A stretch of DNA of 27,186 bases. It comes from a virus (lineage: Duplodnaviria > Heunggongvirae > Uroviricota > Caudoviricetes). The notes beneath the pieces are model-generated. The model searched no databases, had not been told where the DNA came from, and saw nothing but the letters and a program-made list of their open reading frames with translations. Location of the stretch: the IMG/VR virus record IMGVR_UViG_2537561936_000020, positions 1 through 27,186 of that record; one strand, written 5' to 3'. Made by a program: the position numbers and the translations under genes. This document shows, one piece after another, positions 3,877 to 23,665 of the stretch; positions within the stretch are counted from its first letter, which is position 1; the number at the start of each line of letters is the position of its first letter.

Positions 3877-5513
3877 GCTCTTACGATGTAATTAAACGCA
3901 ATGTTGCGTGGGCGGTTTTCGTTTGCAGTTGGAACAATTCTTGAAGCATCAAGGCCAATCACTTTTGGGTAAACAGTGCCATCTGTTCTTTCAGTCACCA
4001 TACTTCTGATTAAGGAGAAATAACTATTGTTCGTTGAGGGACTCAAAGGCACCACTGCCCCCTTAAATGAGTCTACTGATTCCCATATTGAATAATTTTC
4101 GGTGTTTACAGTCTTGAACTCACCATAGATATTACGTATGGCATCACCTTGAGCGGATAATATTGTTCTCCCCGCATCCACACCACGTCCGTCATCCCAA
4201 CCACGGATAAATTCACCGCGTAAATCCGGTAATTTATTGGTGGGATAAGCCTTTGCCAGTTTTGGGTACTTTTCAGAAGAAAATGCTGCTCCGTTGCATT
4301 TCAGCCATCCCGTTGGCGGTGTTTCTAAGGGCCACGGAACGGGTACACCAACGGGCAGTGCAGAGCCTTCCCCCAAACCAAGGTAATCAAGAACTCCCTG
4401 AGTGCTGGTTTTGCCAAGAATGGCACGTCCAACACTTGTCAACGCGGTTAACGCGGCACGATCTGCCCCTGTAAAATATGGGAGTTTATCTGCTGATGTA
4501 GCAAGCTCCGCCAGCGCCGTCAGGGTGGCATCCTTCGGTTGCTTACCCGCAAGCGCGTTAGTCATGGTGGTCGCAAAATTCGGGTCATTGCCCAGCGCCG
4601 CAGCCAGTTCGTTCAGCGTGTTCAGTGCATCAGGTGACGAGTCTACAAGTGCGGCAATCGCGGCCATAACGAAAGCCGTGCTTGCGATCTGGGTACTATT
4701 AGTCCCCTGTGCCGCTGTTGGTGTTGTTGGCGTTCCGGTCAGTGCCGGGCTGTTTAATGGTGCTTTCTTGTTCGTTTCATCCATTACCGCCTTAACAGCT
4801 TTTGGTGTCGCTGCCAGTGTTTCAGACGTGCTGTTCGTGGCGCTACTGAGCTGAACAATCCCTTTTTGTGTAGTGGTGGCGTTCTGGGCGGTATATTTCT
4901 CGTTAGCCAGGTCATATGCAGCCTTAACCGCTTTCGGTGTTGCGGCCAGTGTTTCTGATTCACTGTTAATTGCACTGCTTAACTGAGTAAAACCTTTTAC
5001 GGTCAGCGAGGCGTCTGGGTGACGTCGTGACTGTTCGTGCTCTGAGATTTTATCATCCACATATTTGCGGGTTGCCAGAACCACAGACGGGTCGATTTTC
5101 AGCGTGATGGCTTCGGTGTTCGTGACAACCAGAATCATGCGGATAGTCTGGGTGCGTCCACTGCCTTCCTGCAACTGCGGTTTGTACGTTTCCGGGCAGT
5201 TTGCCACCGCAATGAGTACACCTTCATCATCATAAAGACCAATCTCACGGATCCAGAATCCTCCCTCGTTTTCAGGGATGATTTGCTCCGCAATAATCTG
5301 GCTCTGATTGTTAGGGTCAACACTCAGAAGATTCAGCGGTGCAATGCGTTTCTGGTTAATCAGTTTTGTTTGTGCAGGGTCTGGTGTTGGTAACACACCA
5401 TTTGCATCACCAACGGCCATTTGCGTCAGATTCAGCTTACTGCCGAGCATCGTCGCGTTAGCCAGTCGTGCTGCGCCCTGATTAGTCAGAATGGCGTAGT
5501 ATTTCACTGTCAT
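3870..5513 (-). CDS. H: Tail fibre protein H: P2-like constant N-terminal region fused to invertible C-terminal cassette 1
   Basis: 547 aa. First ~390 aa match P2 gpH (…YVDDKISEHEQSRRHPDASLTVKGFTQLSSA…ATPKAVKAVMDETNKKAPLNSPALTGTPTTPTA…). C-terminal ~160 aa is the cassette-type domain ending NIAFNYIVRAA. Confidence 0.9.
   Translation of the reverse strand: MTVKYYAILTNQGAARLANATMLGSKLNLTQMAVGDANGVLPTPDPAQTKLINQKRIAPLNLLSVDPNNQSQIIAEQIIPENEGGFWIREIGLYDDEGVLIAVANCPETYKPQLQEGSGRTQTIRMILVVTNTEAITLKIDPSVVLATRKYVDDKISEHEQSRRHPDASLTVKGFTQLSSAINSESETLAATPKAVKAAYDLANEKYTAQNATTTQKGIVQLSSATNSTSETLAATPKAVKAVMDETNKKAPLNSPALTGTPTTPTAAQGTNSTQIASTAFVMAAIAALVDSSPDALNTLNELAAALGNDPNFATTMTNALAGKQPKDATLTALAELATSADKLPYFTGADRAALTALTSVGRAILGKTSTQGVLDYLGLGEGSALPVGVPVPWPLETPPTGWLKCNGAAFSSEKYPKLAKAYPTNKLPDLRGEFIRGWDDGRGVDAGRTILSAQGDAIRNIYGEFKTVNTENYSIWESVDSFKGAVVPLSPSTNNSYFSLIRSMVTERTDGTVYPKVIGLDASRIVPTANENRPRNIAFNYIVRAA
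4368..4393 (-). other. Candidate crossover site A inside H (constant/variable junction)
   Basis: On the - strand TTCTTGATTACC-TT-GGTTTGGGGGAA. Left half resembles hixL TTCTTGAAAACC; right half is identical to sites B and D. Confidence 0.6.
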
Positions 5514-7939: not shown

Positions 7940-8580
7940 CGTACAGCCTCCGCAATCCGGCCCAGCACCGTGTTATAAATCAGGCGCTCATCTGCCTGGC
8001 TGATACCCAACAGCTCACGTACCGGGTAATCGGTGAAAATGCCCGGCGCAACCTGATCGCGCTCACCGAACTGATGAACGCGGGCAATACGTGCGGCCAC
8101 GCCGCTGTAACCCACCGTCACACCGGAAGTATCCGCACGGGCTTTCAGGTAGCGGGCGGTGCGCAGTTTTACGAACATGGGGACGCGCTTTGTGCTGTCC
8201 TGGTTGATGCGCCGGGTGCGTATTTCCAGAAAGCGGTCGATGTCATCCCGGTAAAACGTGCGGATGTTGTTTTTATCCTCATCCCACCCGGTGATGGTTC
8301 GCCCGTATTTCCCCGTGTCGTGATGCCAGTTTTTCAGCGTGCGTGCTTCGTTATTCCAGATAAAGCGAATGCGTTCCTGTATCCGGGTTACGCGGCGTCT
8401 GCGTGGTGTCCATGCGGTCCCGTCCGGCGCTTTCTGTGACCGGATACGTGCCTGCTGGGCGCGACGTAAATCCTGTGCCAGCTTTCTGGCGATGTTATTG
8501 ATGGCCTGCTGATTCAGGCTGTCGCGGATGGACTCAAAGGTTTCATCCACGCGGGTGAATGCCTTATCCATCGCTTTCAC
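7936..8580 (-). CDS. S: Tail completion / virion morphogenesis protein (gpS-like)
   Basis: Position between R and V with overlapping stop/start codons; basic protein. Longer than P2 S, so the N-terminal boundary is uncertain. Confidence 0.6.
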   Translation of the reverse strand: MKAMDKAFTRVDETFESIRDSLNQQAINNIARKLAQDLRRAQQARIRSQKAPDGTAWTPRRRRVTRIQERIRFIWNNEARTLKNWHHDTGKYGRTITGWDEDKNNIRTFYRDDIDRFLEIRTRRINQDSTKRVPMFVKLRTARYLKARADTSGVTVGYSGVAARIARVHQFGERDQVAPGIFTDYPVRELLGISQADERLIYNTVLGRIAEAVR

Positions 8581-9031
8581 CCCACGTCACATCCTGGAAT
8601 ACATGCGACCAGTCGCCTTCGGAAGATGGCAGGCGGGGTTTTGGCTCCGGCAGGTGTTCTGCCTGCGGTGTGCCCTGACTGCTGCGCGTGATGCGAACGC
8701 GTTCCCGCAGGGGGAGCGTAAACAGGAGATCGGCGCTGTCATCGTCATTGATAACGGCGGAGAATTTGATGTCCTGATTACGCTCAGGGTTGAGCAACAA
8801 CTGTGGCTGATTTTCGGATAACCACGCCAGCAGCGGCAGCGTGAGGTCGTCCAGCTCCCCGGCGTAATCCATGACAAACATCACCATCTGATAGCGGTAA
8901 ACAAACGAGGGCGTTTCTCCGGTCGTTTCAATGTTGCCGCTCTCCACGAAAATGGTGAATTTTTCCGGGTTGGCCTGACACCATCGGCATGAACGGGTCA
9001 TGGCTTCACGCAGGGAATCAGTTTTCAGCAT
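8564..9031 (-). CDS. R: Tail completion protein R
   Basis: 155 aa, P2 gpR-like, located immediately after the lysis cassette. Confidence 0.7.
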   Translation of the reverse strand: MLKTDSLREAMTRSCRWCQANPEKFTIFVESGNIETTGETPSFVYRYQMVMFVMDYAGELDDLTLPLLAWLSENQPQLLLNPERNQDIKFSAVINDDDSADLLFTLPLRERVRITRSSQGTPQAEHLPEPKPRLPSSEGDWSHVFQDVTWGESDG

Positions 9032-19215: not shown

Positions 19216-19328
19216 GTTTACGGGATTCTGAAATCCCGTTTTTGCCTGTTTTGTGCGCGCTTCATATATCGCTGCGCGTTTTTTGCTCATTTACGGGATT
19301 CGTGAGTCCCGTTTCTGTCTGTTTTTTG
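19216..19328. repeat. Candidate parC centromere/operator: two ~40-bp direct repeats each containing a 20-bp palindrome
   Basis: ACGGGATTCTGAAATCCCGT (19220-19239) and ACGGGATTCGTGAGTCCCGT (19293-19312), 73 bp apart, each followed by TTT(T/C)TG(C/T)CTGTTTT(G/T)TG. Lies directly upstream of parM. Confidence 0.6.
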
Positions 19329-22087
19329 TTTCCACTGGTCAGGCCACCCCGCAGCAGGTCTGCTTTGCGGCTGGCGCGTTCAGTGGTTTCACTGATTCTC
19401 TGTGCGTGCTCTGCGTCGCGGATGGCGCGCAGCATGTCAGAAAGCACGGTAACGGGTGTTTTCATGGTGTTCTGGTCCTGCTGAAGTGTGGATGCCAGGC
19501 GTGCGGCGGCTTCAGGGTCTGATGCCCCCAGCTGTGCCAGATAGCTGGCGACCGGGTTATGGCGGATCTCCGTGCTGCTTACGCCATGATTACGGCTCAG
19601 ACGCTGCCAGAGCTGCGTGATTCGGCTGTCCGGGCGGGTATCCGGTTTGCGTACAATTTCAAATCCCTGCGGTGCAATGATGCTGCCGTCAACGTACAGA
19701 CTGCCGCCCCGTAACAGGTGCTGCATCTGTTGTTCACCGATATGCAGGCCGAGAGATTCAGCAGACTCCCGCCATTCTTTAGCGAGTAACTCGTGGTTAT
19801 CAGGCAAAGGCCGCTGCTGTTTGCGGCTCTGTGTCCAGTTCTGCATTTCATCGCTGCTGTTTTTTGCCTGTTTGTCACGAAGCGAACGCATCAGCGCCCG
19901 GCGTTCGTGCCGTTTCAGTGAGCGCATCCATTCATTTACTTCAACGCCGTCAGGAAGCTGCGGCCACGGTGCTGGCCGTTCTTCCGGCTGTTCTGTCCCG
20001 TTGTTGCCTGTTTCCTGTACACGGGGACAGTTATTGCCACGAGTCCAAGGGGCGGCAGGGCCGCCCTGAAGGTCAAAACCATTTTCGCGGGCGCTGTCTT
20101 CCGCTTCCGGTTTACGTCTTACCAGCTTCCAGTTATCCGGATGCGTGCACACACGGGAGGATTCCCCGATGAATGGCGACCAGATCCCGTAAATCTGTAC
20201 ACTCTGTTCGCCGTAATCGTTCAGCTCATCTGCGAGGTCGTAGGCTGTGCGAATCAGGTAGTCCTTGCGCGGAACAAGTACGCCACCCTGTTTTTCAATG
20301 TAGGTGGCAAAACATCCGGCATCAGCGGCAGCGAGTACCGCATCCATTGCGTCATCCTTCAGCCGTTGCGGGCCTTCCGGGTTGCGTGCCATCTGGCTGG
20401 CAAGGCGGCGGAGTTCACGCCACACCTGACGGGAGGGGATGCCAAAGAACTGGAACTGGCGGACCCGGTGAAGGCGCGCCCAGCCGATGGCTCGCTCCAC
20501 GCTCTCGGCCATTGATTTACCTGTTTCGTGGTCAACGCGTGGCTTGCCCGTTTTCGGGTCGATGCCATCCACGGCGCGGCTGTCCAGGTTCTTTCCGATG
20601 TAGGTGGCGATGTAGCTGGTTGGCGTGCCTTTTGAGCCGTCGACGTACTCCGCCTTAAAGCGTGGGGTAATATCATCACCCAGCTCGTGACGATCTTCCT
20701 GAATGGCAATATCGCGGGTGTGGGACACAATGGTGTCGATTTCTTCCGGATGAGCAAAGACCATCATATGCCAGTGCACGGTGCCGTCATGGTGAGGCTC
20801 CACCGTGCGGATGCCATACCAGCGCAGGCCGTCGCGGTTCAGTTTCTTGCGGACCGCTGCAAAAAACGTGTTAACCAGGTAATCGCTGGAGTCGCGCATG
20901 GTGGCCCCGTTCCATTTGGGATTCGGATGACCGTTCTCTGTTGTGGCGTGGTATTTTGACGGGCAGGTGACAGTTAGAAACACCGCTTTGTCGCCACGGG
21001 CTTCGGCCAGAAGTTCCAGCCCCTTCATGGTGGCCATCATTTCTGCCTTACGGTGAACCGGGTTACTTACTCCCGCGTAATACACTGTCTCGAGATCAAT
21101 CGTGAAACCGTCTTCGTTTTCCAGTTCGAAGCTCTTCAGGAAGTCGCGGGTTTTCTCGCGCTGTGCGCGAAACTCGCTTAACGCGTCCTGGCTCAGATAG
21201 GGTGATGTTTTTCTGGAAACCAGACAGGCGGCGCGGAGTTGTTCTTCTCTCCACTCACAACGTAACAGCCACAGTTTGCGTTTCCACCAGTCCGCACAGG
21301 TCAGGCGAAGGATTGCGCCCGGCAGCAGTTCCGTATCCGGTTCGCTCTTGTTCAGGGCTTCGTAATGTGGCGGCATGATGTGCAGGCGTAATGCGATACG
21401 AGCCAGCATCCGGTAAGCCTTCAACATTACATCCATGGTCAGCTCGCCATCTCTGGCACCAAAGCCATCGCAGAGTGTTTCGAAGGTGCTGCTGAACATC
21501 GCCGCGGTCATGGTGGCCAGCGTCTGTATCTGGTGCTTGTTGAGCTGCGGCAGGTAAAGCAAATCGTCCAGGCGTTCGCGCCCGGCAAGGGAGCGATAAC
21601 CCGGTGTCAGCCAGCGTCCGTCAGTGCGATCCAGACGTTCGAATATTTTGCGCAGGGTTCCGCGTGCATAGCGTTCCGCCTGCCAGCTCTTTTTGCCTTT
21701 CTGGCGATCGGCTTCCTGTTTTTTGCGCAGGAAAGAGAGGTGGCGGCTCAGTGGTTCACGCAGATAAACAGGTAGTGCCTTTAGTGTGGCAAAGGCACGG
21801 GCTACTGGGTCTTGTTCTGTTGCCCGGCGCTTACTGATGATGCTCTGTGCCAGCTTTTCACGCTGTCCGGCTTCCTCAAGGGATGCCATGAGTTTTTTAC
21901 CCATGGCGGATTGTGCGAAAAAGGCTTCTTCCTTCGCTTCCTGTTCTTCCTGTGCCCTTTTGTCTGCCTCAAGGTAGTAACGGATGGCGCGTTGCAGGTC
22001 GGTTTCAGTTTCCTGCCTGCGCTCCGTAAACCTGGCCGGATCAATGGCTGGCCGTGGTTCATTCCAGCTCCATGCAAACTCGCTCAT
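19262..22087 (-). CDS. A: Replication initiation endonuclease A (rolling-circle Rep, P2 gpA-like)
   Basis: About 941 aa. HUH-type motif DGTVHWHMMVF and tyrosine pair TSYIATYIGK. Start chosen at Met10 (ATGA overlap with the upstream gene). Confidence 0.85.
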   Translation of the reverse strand: MSEFAWSWNEPRPAIDPARFTERRQETETDLQRAIRYYLEADKRAQEEQEAKEEAFFAQSAMGKKLMASLEEAGQREKLAQSIISKRRATEQDPVARAFATLKALPVYLREPLSRHLSFLRKKQEADRQKGKKSWQAERYARGTLRKIFERLDRTDGRWLTPGYRSLAGRERLDDLLYLPQLNKHQIQTLATMTAAMFSSTFETLCDGFGARDGELTMDVMLKAYRMLARIALRLHIMPPHYEALNKSEPDTELLPGAILRLTCADWWKRKLWLLRCEWREEQLRAACLVSRKTSPYLSQDALSEFRAQREKTRDFLKSFELENEDGFTIDLETVYYAGVSNPVHRKAEMMATMKGLELLAEARGDKAVFLTVTCPSKYHATTENGHPNPKWNGATMRDSSDYLVNTFFAAVRKKLNRDGLRWYGIRTVEPHHDGTVHWHMMVFAHPEEIDTIVSHTRDIAIQEDRHELGDDITPRFKAEYVDGSKGTPTSYIATYIGKNLDSRAVDGIDPKTGKPRVDHETGKSMAESVERAIGWARLHRVRQFQFFGIPSRQVWRELRRLASQMARNPEGPQRLKDDAMDAVLAAADAGCFATYIEKQGGVLVPRKDYLIRTAYDLADELNDYGEQSVQIYGIWSPFIGESSRVCTHPDNWKLVRRKPEAEDSARENGFDLQGGPAAPWTRGNNCPRVQETGNNGTEQPEERPAPWPQLPDGVEVNEWMRSLKRHERRALMRSLRDKQAKNSSDEMQNWTQSRKQQRPLPDNHELLAKEWRESAESLGLHIGEQQMQHLLRGGSLYVDGSIIAPQGFEIVRKPDTRPDSRITQLWQRLSRNHGVSSTEIRHNPVASYLAQLGASDPEAAARLASTLQQDQNTMKTPVTVLSDMLRAIRDAEHAQRISETTERASRKADLLRGGLTSGNKKQTETGLTNPVNEQKTRSDI

Positions 22088-22473
22088 GGCTGGTATCCCG
22101 TCACGCGCTGCCACTCCTGCGAGAAGATGGCGGAAAGGCGGTTAAATTCAGCGGTGTATTCACTCAGCGAGGCACACCCGCCAGCAGTGCGATGCGCCAG
22201 CATTGCCGCGAATACGGAGGCCGGGGAGTCGTAATACGCCAGCAGTGATTCGCCGTGTGGTGTCAGGCAGTGCAACGCCAGCCCGTGTGGTGTGAAGTCC
22301 ACGCGGTAGCAGTCGTCTACTGTGAAATAAAGGGTGTCCGCATTCTCCGGTTTTGTGGTGCGTGCTCTGTTGTCACGACCACGGATGTAGAGATCAAATA
22401 ATCCCTGAAGAATGGGAGCCAGACGGGTGTCCTGTGTGCGCACCCATCTTGTGAAGTCATGAGCGTCAATCAT
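22084..22473 (-). CDS. Hypothetical early protein
   Basis: 129 aa ORF, translationally coupled to A. No recognisable motif. Confidence 0.55.
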   Translation of the reverse strand: MIDAHDFTRWVRTQDTRLAPILQGLFDLYIRGRDNRARTTKPENADTLYFTVDDCYRVDFTPHGLALHCLTPHGESLLAYYDSPASVFAAMLAHRTAGGCASLSEYTAEFNRLSAIFSQEWQRVTGYQP

Positions 22474-22545
22474 GCTGCAATTCTCTTTACTACAGATGTG
22501 CGAAGGCCTCCCGCCGCAAGGTGCAGGAAAGGCCTGGAACAGGAA

Positions 22546-22776
22546 TTAATGGAGTTTGTTTTGCTGCTGAAAGAGCTGCTGAAGCTCGCGCAGATCATCC
22601 GCCAGATAGCTGAAAACAGCGGATGAATAGAGGTTTGAAAGTTCGCAGCTACGCTCATGCAGCATATTGATGTGCATGATTTTAGCGACGCGGAATGCGC
22701 GGGAAAGTCTGCGGTTGATTTCAGTCTGGATGTGACGACGCTCCGCGATAGCGCGGTGCTGTTTGCGGTTTGCCAT
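22546..22776 (-). CDS. Hypothetical small basic protein
   Basis: 76 aa, protein-like composition; GAAGAGG 9 nt upstream of the ATG. Overlaps the long ORF 22470..23402 in another frame. Confidence 0.45.
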   Translation of the reverse strand: MANRKQHRAIAERRHIQTEINRRLSRAFRVAKIMHINMLHERSCELSNLYSSAVFSYLADDLRELQQLFQQQNKLH

Positions 22777-22958
22777 GGTGTTTGGCCTCTTCGTTTGTGA
22801 GTTTTTGGATACTCACCAACCAGAGTTGAGAATCTCGGGGTGGCGAGACGTACGGGGTTCTCAACACCGGCAAACGAAGAAACCGGCCCGACCGAAGTCG
22901 GCCCCGTACGCCCCACCATAATTCGTGTGCGAAAAAGACGTGGCAATACAGTACGCAC

Positions 22959-22979
22959 AAAAAAACCGCTGGCGCGGTT
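22959..22979 (-). terminator. Rho-independent terminator inside the early operon
   Basis: On the - strand AACCGC-GCCA-GCGGTT followed by TTTTTTT. Confidence 0.55.
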
Positions 22980-23089
22980 GTGCGCTTCGTTTGTCAGCAG
23001 GTTGAGAATCCCGGCACCCGTTTTATGAGGTGCAGCAGAAATGTAACCTGACTGATTGCGGCATGGCAAGCGGTTTTTTTGTGTGTGCA

Positions 23090-23402
23090 TGCTCTGATTT
23101 CTTACTGGTTCAGAAAAAAAATCAAAAACCTTGTCAATGCGTTGCAACAGCTCTTGCTGTATTGCTTCCGGCGTTTCCGGTTCGCCTGGCGCCTCCAATG
23201 TCGCGCAGAAATCAGCGATTTCATGATGGAGCGTCAGGCGAATGGCAGGAGCCGTGGTTCTGGCGTGCTCCAGCTCATCCAGCAATGCCAGCACCGCAGA
23301 CGGCGAGAGCATTGCGCGAAATGCCAGTAATTTTTGAGGTGTTGCCATTCGTTGCAGGGCAAATGCCAGTTCGCGTAGCTTCTGGTGGTTGATGGTGCTC
23401 AT
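23090..23402 (-). CDS. Hypothetical early protein (3' boundary uncertain)
   Basis: ATGA overlap with the upstream gene. First ~100 aa look protein-like; the ORF stays open to 22470 through a hairpin-rich segment of atypical composition. Confidence 0.4.
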
Positions 23403-23665
23403 GTTCTGGCTTCCTTCAGTAGCTGGTTAAACATGTGAGTAAGTGGATTGCTACACCCGAACGGCATCGGGTTTACGTGGTAAGAAGCCTGGCCTCCAGT
23501 TTTGCGAGCGCGACCACCTGTGCTGCGGTTTGTTCTGATGACTAAGCCGCCGCGCCAAAGTTGGCGTAACTCAGCATTAATGGCTGTGGTTGGAGTATTC
23601 AGTGCTGCTGCGATTTCTCCGCCGCTACAACCCGGATGGGTAGCGATGTAGTCCAGAATGGTCAT
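23399..23665 (-). CDS. Hypothetical protein, possible winged-helix DNA-binding fold
   Basis: 88 aa; coupled to its neighbours by overlapping stop/start codons. Confidence 0.5.
   Translation of the reverse strand: MTILDYIATHPGCSGGEIAAALNTPTTAINAELRQLWRGGLVIRTNRSTGGRARKTGGQASYHVNPMPFGCSNPLTHMFNQLLKEART

Follow-up and report, generated by a model that had tools for sequence, protein, structure and literature searches.

An antisense-RNA cassette, very probably of the P4/P1 immunity type, in the early operon of a P88-like, P2-type prophage

On the − strand of the early operon of this prophage, a segment rich in inverted repeats (22777..23030) lies within a long open reading frame (ORF) that reads straight through it. 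Does this DNA make structured RNA, protein or both? The preliminary description of the window (the whole stretch of DNA analysed, 27,186 nt) proposed a structured leader or an independent non-coding RNA, and the two turn out to be present at once, as a terminated leader small RNA (isrK) followed by a structured antisense RNA (C4). We conclude that the segment is very probably a P4/P1-type antisense-RNA immunity cassette inside the early operon, which runs from Cox to gpA, of a P88-like, P2-type prophage, for which a scheme in the lysogen and on induction is set out below.

Two RNA families in tandem within a P2-type early operon

At curated thresholds, an Rfam scan of the whole window gave exactly two matches, both on the − strand and both covering the full length of the model: isrK (62 bits against a cut-off of 50, model positions 1-77 of 77) and C4 antisense RNA (79.2 bits against a cut-off of 45, model positions 1-87 of 87). 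A rescan of the segment at permissive thresholds gave no further Rfam families. With the same models, the isrK and C4 tandem is also found in P4 (isrK at 8615-8692, 60.8 bits; C4 at 8420-8507), phage P88 and PhiR44_2. The RNA block starts at 23033, 3 nt upstream of the end first assigned to the hairpin-rich segment, and the features listed in the preliminary description exist on the − strand at their coordinates. The RNA elements are as follows.

23040..23069, − strand: promoter-like site for IsrK (consensus scan; predicted function)
22959..23033, − strand: IsrK, a seqA-type leader small RNA (Rfam RF01394)
23014..23001, − strand: target a1, seqA-like, in the loop of IsrK hairpin 2 (co-varies with C4)
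22994..22985, − strand: target b1, in the IsrK linker (co-varies with C4)
22979..22964 plus U7 at 22965..22959, − strand: intrinsic terminator AACCGC-GCCA-GCGGTT with a 6-bp stem, analogue of P4 t1
22836..22923, − strand: C4, a CI-type antisense immunity RNA (Rfam RF01695)
22825..22838, − strand: target a2, seqC-like, CCGAGATTCTCAAC, directly 3′ of C4 (complementary to the C4 segment a′; co-varies across loci)
22785..22798, − strand: target b2, ACAAACGAAGAGGC, which includes the Shine-Dalgarno sequence AAGAGG of the 76-aa gene (complementary to the C4 loop b′)

IsrK consists of hairpin 1, hairpin 2 with target a1, a single-stranded linker with target b1, and the intrinsic terminator. The last of these had been read from the letters as a strong terminator, AACCGC-GCCA-GCGGTT with T7, and this is borne out: it is the terminator of IsrK and the counterpart of P4 t1. 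Covariation supports both RNAs; in IsrK, hairpin 1 has six pairs with compensatory changes. By folding energy alone the first 75 nt, corresponding to IsrK, are not exceptional (z = −1.5), yet they score above the curated covariance-model cut-off. Ending 7 nt before the IsrK 5′ end is a putative promoter with a 9/12 consensus match (−35 TTGCCA at 23069..23064, an 18-nt spacer and −10 TACATT at 23045..23040), in a block that is nearly invariant in 14 P88-like loci. Transcription from it would begin near 23033, where the isrK match has its 5′ end.

In C4, a 17-bp outer stem (including CGTACGGGG...CCCCGTACG) surrounds two hairpins: GCCGAC-UUCG-GUCGG, capped by UUCG, and one that presents b′ (22882..22871) as a 12-nt loop. 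Of the a′ segment (22865..22853), the 5′ part, GUUGAGAA, forms an unpaired internal bulge, and the five bases at the 3′ end, CCCCG, belong to the outer stem. The minimum free energy (MFE) of the 88-nt element is −48.6 kcal/mol (z = −4.67; 0 of 200 dinucleotide shuffles as stable), and the MFE fold is the consensus fold. Among 39 distinct sequences, 13 of the 27 consensus pairs show compensatory double changes and none is broken. The 3′ tail of C4, CACCACC, is conserved and would be the one sign here of the maturation typical of C4 RNAs, with an RNase P cut at the 5′ end and trimming at the 3′ end, which in this family goes with repression in trans.

This structure divides the nested repeats that first drew attention to the segment. 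CGTACGGGG/CCCCGTACG and GCCGAC-TTCG-GTCGG are indeed stems of C4, whereas GTTGAGAA/TTCTCAAC are not a hairpin of the mature RNA. They are an antisense–target pair, in which GTTGAGAA (22865..22858), in the a′ segment, is complementary to TTCTCAAC (22832..22825), in the downstream target.

The element that carries these RNAs is a P2-type prophage. The best DNA matches of the window are P88-group (Xuanwuvirus, P2-type) phages, including P88 and PhiR44_2, at 86-94% identity. Integrase and a C-type HTH repressor lie on one strand, divergent from Cox; the other strand carries, in turn, Cox, DUF4761, DUF4754, a MarR-type gene of 88 aa, an Ead-like gene, the RNA cassette, the 76-aa and 129-aa genes and gpA. 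Pfam matches in the early region are Int, HTH, Cox, DUF4761, DUF4754 and GPA. A P4 satellite as the host element was ruled out by the P2-type gpA, by the P88-group DNA matches and by a likeness to P4 that is confined to the RNA cassette and epsilon. Two small ORFs over the RNAs, 22721..22960 (−) and 22840..23028 (+), have no family matches and were treated as spurious. Downstream of the cassette lie three genes.

22546..22776, − strand: 76-aa gene, homologue of P4 epsilon (helper derepression/antirepressor; Pfam PF25738, BLASTP)
22084..22473, − strand: 129-aa gene (PHROG 3237), which shares an ATGA (its start, the read-through stop) with the read-through frame and whose own stop overlaps the gpA start
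19262..22087, − strand: P2-type replication gene A, gpA (Pfam Phage_GPA, 435 bits)

The segment ends, as had been proposed, at the Shine-Dalgarno sequence and ATG (22776) of the 76-aa gene. Its product matches Pfam PF25738 Derepression at 29.3 bits (cut-off 27; P4 epsilon itself scores 170 bits) and is 29% identical to P4 epsilon (E 1e-8, BLASTP). Variable sites in this gene fall on codon positions 1, 2 and 3 as 24/24/46, a third-position excess, and we therefore regard the gene as real. By analogy with the known systems, it would be the first gene under C4 control, and expression of gpA, further downstream, would be gated by the cassette.

C4 loops and their targets vary in concert

Both exposed segments of C4 have complements on either side of it. 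The a′ segment pairs with CCGGGATTCTCAAC in IsrK hairpin 2 (a1) at 12 of 13 positions (−18.5 kcal/mol) and with a2 at 11 of 13. For b′, there is a 9-nt complement at b1 in the IsrK linker and a perfect 10-nt complement, CAAACGAAGA (22797..22788), that runs into the AAGAGG Shine-Dalgarno sequence; the b′–b2 duplex has an energy of −14.4 kcal/mol, and 1 of 500 shuffles was as good.

These complements were followed across relatives collected by a pattern scan of viral contigs, which gave 120 loci; 68 stretches matched the C4 profile. Loop–target complements sit at fixed offsets on both sides of C4 in 50+ loci. The sample contains 26 variants of b′ and 15 of a′, in 34 loop combinations, and loops and targets co-vary, b2 following b′ across loci. 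Compared with foreign targets, own targets have longer median contiguous complements (8 versus 5 nt for b1, 9 versus 4 nt for b2, 7 versus 5 nt for a1 and 7 versus 4 nt for a2), and only 0.4-3.9% of foreign loop–target pairs reach the median of own pairs. When 15 P88-like loci are aligned, six short patches vary in concert, including mosaic combinations of a and b, while the rest of the block is almost invariant. Judged by sequence comparison, such concerted patches are the signature of an antisense RNA that sets immunity specificity, and the many loop specificities suggest that this specificity has diversified.

The same co-variation bears on a rival reading of the segment, as a plain attenuator that acts in cis alone and is made up of an intrinsic terminator and a structured 5′ UTR within an operon. 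Such an attenuator would have a terminator and stable local structure, both of which are present, but the co-variation of a′ and b′ with upstream and downstream targets over the 34 loop combinations, mosaics included, is that of a specificity antisense RNA, and the families found here have type members that act in trans. We regard plain attenuation as very improbable.

An open frame across the RNA genes

The antisense-RNA cassette has to be reconciled with the reading frame that crosses it. Three features are needed here.

22470..23090, − strand: conserved read-through open frame, eta/orf45-like (open-frame conservation)
23102..23402, − strand: upstream early gene, Ead/Ea22-like (PHROG 4144, 201 bits)
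23114..23121, − strand: T8 homopolymer, T7 in near-identical genomes and in eight related viral loci

The long ORF, 22470..23402, is open as claimed in the preliminary description, though its length rests on one extra T in a homopolymer. The 310-aa ORF is a composite: with T8 in place of T7, a gene of 99 aa is joined to the read-through frame. Compared with E. coli TUM1880, this T is the only difference in 1051 nt; T8 occurs in two of six close E. coli genomes and in none of the eight related viral loci. In T7 relatives the Ead-like gene encodes 99 aa and ends at TAA 23104..23102, and the intact protein is annotated in TUM1880 as WP_000104296.1. This gene starts in an ATGA overlap with the end of the 88-aa MarR-type gene. 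The U7/U8 run at its end sits exactly where the read-through frame opens and has the form of a slippery heptamer, U_UUU_UUU.

For PGAP the T8 allele is a pseudogene, and in an identical strain PGAP flags gpA as frameshifted too. Both flags would fit a decaying remnant, in which T8 marks pseudogenisation and the RNAs of this prophage are out of use. Yet IsrK, C4 and the four targets are intact and their complementarity is matched, and gpA in the window is an intact ORF of 941 aa. T8 itself leaves the RNAs untouched; it may be a real mutation, in which case its effect would be limited to sending more ribosomes along the read-through frame, or equally a homopolymer sequencing error. Decay is, in our judgement, improbable. 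No homopolymer indel pointing to sequencing error was found in gpA, whose last 900 nt are free of indels when compared with TUM1880 and which, relative to PhiR44_2, has only an in-frame 15-nt deletion.

Without the upstream gene, the read-through frame has its ATG at 23090..23088, 57 nt before the 5′ end of IsrK. It crosses the putative promoter, IsrK, C4 and the leader and then overlaps the 76-aa gene, which lies out of frame with it, in frame +2, before it ends in the ATGA overlap with the 129-aa gene. Its length is about 205-206 codons from ATG 23090 and 149 codons from an AUG at 22919, at the C4 5′ end, which lies in the conserved frame and corresponds to the AUG from which orf45 starts in Gifsy-1. 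ATG 23090 is within a conserved block that follows four different upstream gene contexts, and it is out of register in one of 14 P88-like loci (L041); the ATGA ending is present in 11 of the 14.

Over a 288-nt span, 46 of 52 distinct loci are stop-free in the read-through frame, against 2 and 1 in the other frames, and stops total 24, 136 and 226 by frame over the 52 loci, counts that overstate independence in that the loci are related to one another. Within the variable b′ loops, stop triplets by frame number 0, 9 and 10 (shuffle probability of zero, ~0.016). Over the epsilon-like gene the frame is open in 11 of 11 alleles, for which the probability expected from the epsilon protein and local codon usage is 0.01-0.27.

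If the long ORF were conserved as protein across the segment, its homologues would carry a synonymous-site pattern there. We looked for this pattern by codon-position counts in 15 aligned relatives, and found no protein-coding signal in the long ORF: variable sites in the read-through frame fall on codon positions 1, 2 and 3 as 5/7/6 in isrK, 7/8/6 in C4 and 8/10/9 in the leader, and over the epsilon-like gene they pile up on the second position (24/46/24). Because homologues lack a synonymous-site pattern in the frame of the long ORF, the RNA reading is favoured. As far as aligned sequences tell, the frame is kept open but is free of protein-level constraint.

These counts also weigh on the view that a functional protein of the Ash/Bro type is the product of the long ORF, or of the 205-206-codon frame that begins at ATG 23090, and that the hairpins merely happen to lie in its mRNA. 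In favour of this view, 310 codons are open, PHROG families labelled ‘transcriptional repressor’ match the frame, PGAP labels it ‘ash family protein’, a name that comes from Pfam PF10554 Phage_ASH, and over isrK–C4 it has a weak match to this Pfam family (cut-off 26), sub-threshold in the window ORF (18.8 bits) and in the TUM1880 frame (20.2 bits) and at 26.5 bits in the relative PhiR44_2. Against such a protein, variable sites are even over the codon positions of the RNA genes and pile up on the second position over the epsilon-like gene, whereas RNA pairing and loop–target co-variation account for the variation. The N-terminal third of the long ORF is a different gene, joined by the one extra T. 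In addition, the Phage_ASH profile, which scores 82.2 bits on the P4 ORF, aligns to that ORF exactly over its isrK–C4 DNA, and the ‘protein families’ therefore largely reflect conserved RNA genes. A functional Ash/Bro-type protein is accordingly a most unlikely product of this frame. The paradox of a long ORF through structured RNA is instead explained by the homopolymer fusion together with a frame of a known type, translated but not conserved as protein. The likeness to P4 eta and Gifsy-1 orf45 matches a role, proposed by analogy with these two, in which the act of translation would matter and not the protein.

A proposed switch and its known relatives

In a lysogen, as modelled on P4, P1 and Gifsy-1, the promoter inside the operon (~23069-23040) would start transcription at ~23033. 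Most transcripts would end at the intrinsic terminator, giving a ~75-nt IsrK/seqA RNA, and those that read through would be processed to a ~88-nt C4/CI RNA. The a′ and b′ segments of C4 would pair with a1 and b1 in the IsrK leader, favouring termination; in P4, the equivalent pairing enhances termination at t1 and autoregulates CI (PMC4825925, PMC10111431). They would also pair with a2 and b2 downstream, where b2 covers the Shine-Dalgarno sequence of the epsilon-like 76-aa gene. This gene would hence stay untranslated, and its untranslated RNA would be prone to termination, perhaps with Rho involvement, before the 129-aa gene and gpA. The expected result is that the epsilon-like antirepressor homologue, the 129-aa gene and gpA stay off.

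On induction or infection, transcripts from the early promoter would carry ATG 23090, which would be missing from transcripts of the internal promoter. Ribosomes could then cross IsrK, C4 and the leader in the stop-free frame and reach the ATGA-coupled gene chain, and their passage would bypass the RNA block, as for P4 eta and, in part, Gifsy-1 orf45. In P4, eta translation prevents termination, and the Rfam C4 and isrK models detect CI and seqA relatives (PMC10111431). IsrK has been described as a structural homologue of the P4 seqA RNA, and the gene after orf45 depends on orf45 being translated (PMC4825925).

Among the closest known systems is the P4 immunity region (PLE – seqA – t1 – CI RNA – seqC in the eta/kil ORF, then epsilon), which has the same two Rfam families in the same order. 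Shared with P4 are the intrinsic terminator between the promoter, putative here, and the antisense RNA, the antisense loops with targets on both sides, an ORF that begins upstream of the internal promoter and crosses both RNAs (in the same frame as the P4 214-aa ORF), an epsilon-family gene next and an 88-aa DNA-binding gene upstream. Unlike P4, which is a satellite with an alpha primase, the host element here is a P2-type phage with gpA, and the a1/b1 targets are spaced at −85/−70 rather than −162/−146. No kil homologue nested in frame at the 3′ end of the read-through frame was found. Instead, C4 is followed directly by the epsilon-like gene, whose own Shine-Dalgarno sequence is the one that is covered and which is out of frame with the read-through ORF. 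A regulated gene outside the read-through frame distinguishes this locus from lambdoid loci as well as from P4, and because of this, and of the missing kil, the P4 model transfers only by analogy.

The geometry of a1b1, a′b′ and a2b2 is that of P1 c4, just as it is that of seqA, seqB and seqC in P4. With P1/P7 immI, where c4 controls icd-ant, the cassette has in common the C4 family and two loop segments with a1/b1 and a2/b2 targets. In P1, the downstream target overlaps the ribosome-binding site of a small first gene that precedes the antirepressor function, and loop changes give heteroimmunity. The downstream genes here, epsilon-like and 129-aa, are unrelated to icd/ant.

Gifsy-1 (isrK-orf45-anrP-isrJ) offers a different logic for similar parts. 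There too an IsrK member is followed by a processed RNA that overlaps an ORF with its AUG at the C4-like 5′ end. Nucleotides are conserved where amino acids are not, and the ORF is coupled through ATGA to the gene that follows it. Applied to this locus, Gifsy-1-type control would mean a closed cis fold of a1/b1 with a′/b′, opened by IsrK acting in trans, with translation from AUG 22919 reaching the 129-aa gene via ATGA. Consistent with this, the 264-nt leader folds strongly (z = −5.41) and its MFE structure pairs the middle part of IsrK with the C4 region in cis, resembling ‘structure A’ of Gifsy-1 (PMC4825925); AUG 22919 is in the conserved frame, and this frame closes with the ATGA overlap. 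However, b2 covers the Shine-Dalgarno sequence of a separate, out-of-frame epsilon-like gene, which is the P1/P4 repressor geometry. In Gifsy-1, moreover, the ORF has 45 codons and is followed by an antirepressor, whereas here it has 149 or 206 codons and overlaps the separate epsilon-like gene. The short IsrK RNA acts as an activator in Gifsy-1 (PMC4825925), the only system for which that role is demonstrated, and the sign of an IsrK trans effect here is uncertain on that account. We hold it possible but rather unlikely that Gifsy-1-type activation dominates at this locus; it and P1/P4-type repression are not mutually exclusive.

The P4/P1-type antisense cassette is an ordinary member of a known system, a textbook-type element for which an Rfam-aware annotation would label both RNAs. 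In the RefSeq annotations examined, however, two curated RNA genes that would, by analogy, control an antirepressor and a replication gene are missing, and their DNA carries other labels, namely ‘ash family protein’, hypothetical proteins or a coding sequence on the opposite strand. A match to the region of this prophage type occurs in 1422 of 5426 complete E. coli genomes, roughly one in four. A literature search found nothing specific on the cassette in P88 or Xuanwuvirus phages. A P4/P1-type RNA immunity switch with an epsilon-type antirepressor thus also sits inside P2-type, helper-like phages. Such phages already have a C/Cox switch, and the biological role of the cassette as a second immunity layer is therefore only putative. 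The value of the locus lies mostly in annotation hygiene and as a worked example, and the current understanding of the mechanism is unchanged.

Less ordinary are three points: the stop-free conduit over an out-of-frame gene, a complement to the terminator 3′ arm upstream of the internal promoter, and the slippery-looking U-run. The complement, a 12-21-nt sequence at 23086..23066, can pair with the terminator 3′ arm and U-tract, and only early-promoter transcripts would contain it. More ribosomes could enter the conduit through slippage at the U-run or through variation between T7 and T8. Speculatively, and with little expectation that it holds, P88-type P2-like phages might use a variant of the bypass, a ‘ribosome conduit’ of ~205 codons that is stop-free across the out-of-frame epsilon-like gene to the ATGA, which the 23086..23066 complement and the U-run might assist.

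Coding annotation over the RNA genes

In the RefSeq records examined, namely phage P88 (NC_026014) and two E. coli records (one from strain TUM1880), both isrK, the gene of the terminated leader RNA, and the gene of the C4 antisense RNA are unannotated. In P88, at 4914-5102, an opposite-strand coding sequence, gp13 ('hypothetical protein'), covers isrK-C4. PGAP names the sense-strand frame 'ash family protein'. In phage P4, Phage_ASH (PF10554) aligns at full length, at 8330-8704, to the isrK and C4 part of the read-through ORF, and several PHROG 'transcriptional repressor/regulator' families match this segment as well. To a large extent, then, it is conserved RNA-gene DNA that these protein families follow.

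Opening and course of the read-through frame

The end of the 99-aa upstream gene carries a T-run that marks the exact point at which the read-through frame opens:

23114-23121, - strand: T-run, directly preceded by a TGA in the read-through frame

Alleles with seven T residues read GAU UUU UUU CUG, which contains the heptamer U_UUU_UUU, and the -1 frame of this heptamer is the read-through frame. The 99-aa gene and the read-through ORF would be joined into one by slippage or by variation between T7 and T8, as in the window.

In two loci, L038 and L055, a kil-like 64-aa gene lies outside the C4 frame, as does the epsilon-like gene of the window. The C4 frame is still open there for 167-180 codons, with an ATGA end in L055, and these loci may represent a second, independent instance of an open frame that passes through the RNA genes and runs out of frame over the gene that follows.

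Paired cassettes and loop specificity

Some viral contigs hold two isrK-C4 cassettes in near proximity, with unlike loop sequences.

Viral contigs with two isrK-C4 cassettes (contig, first cassette, second cassette)
L027: 4574-4760; 5233-5421
L028: 3562-3748; 4319-4403
L110: 7740-7926; 8494-8578
L069: 7248; 9879

The differing loops suggest that these double cassettes are stacked immunity specificities. In an alignment of the P88-like loci, a specificities and b specificities assort independently of each other: L119, for instance, combines the a' bulge found in L002 with the b' loop found in L091 (a' and b' being the target-pairing segments of C4), and the targets fit in each case. Such independent assortment suggests recombination inside the cassette.

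Sequences flanking the cassette

Just 5' of the IsrK -35 element lies a 21-nt sequence, ACACACAAAAAAACCGCTTGC, that is 90% complementary to the IsrK terminator:

23066-23086, - strand: ACACACAAAAAAACCGCTTGC
22953-22973, - strand: its partner, the terminator 3' arm and U-tract

The 12-nt core, AAAAAAACCGCT, is at position -47 and unchanged across all P88-like loci. Among the P4-like loci, some carry GACGCATG at -80, which matches CATGCGTC; among the lambdoid loci, some carry CCGCATGA at -106, which matches TCATGCGG. ACACACAAAAAAACCGCTTGC could be an antiterminator confined to transcripts from the upstream promoter, a UP-element A-tract or a recombination scar.

On the other side, the P2-type replication gene gpA is directly followed by a ParM-type plasmid segregation gene (TUM1880 annotation; L126 834-901), whose start context in TUM1880 is also found in the window from about 19190 downwards (- strand). 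Compared with phage PhiR44_2, gpA has an in-frame 15-nt deletion at 21352 (- strand), giving 941 aa versus 946 aa. E. coli PEC178 matches the window at 100% across the 1051 nt compared (22400-23450); PGAP labels its gpA 'frameshifted', and the gpA ORF of the window is uninterrupted.
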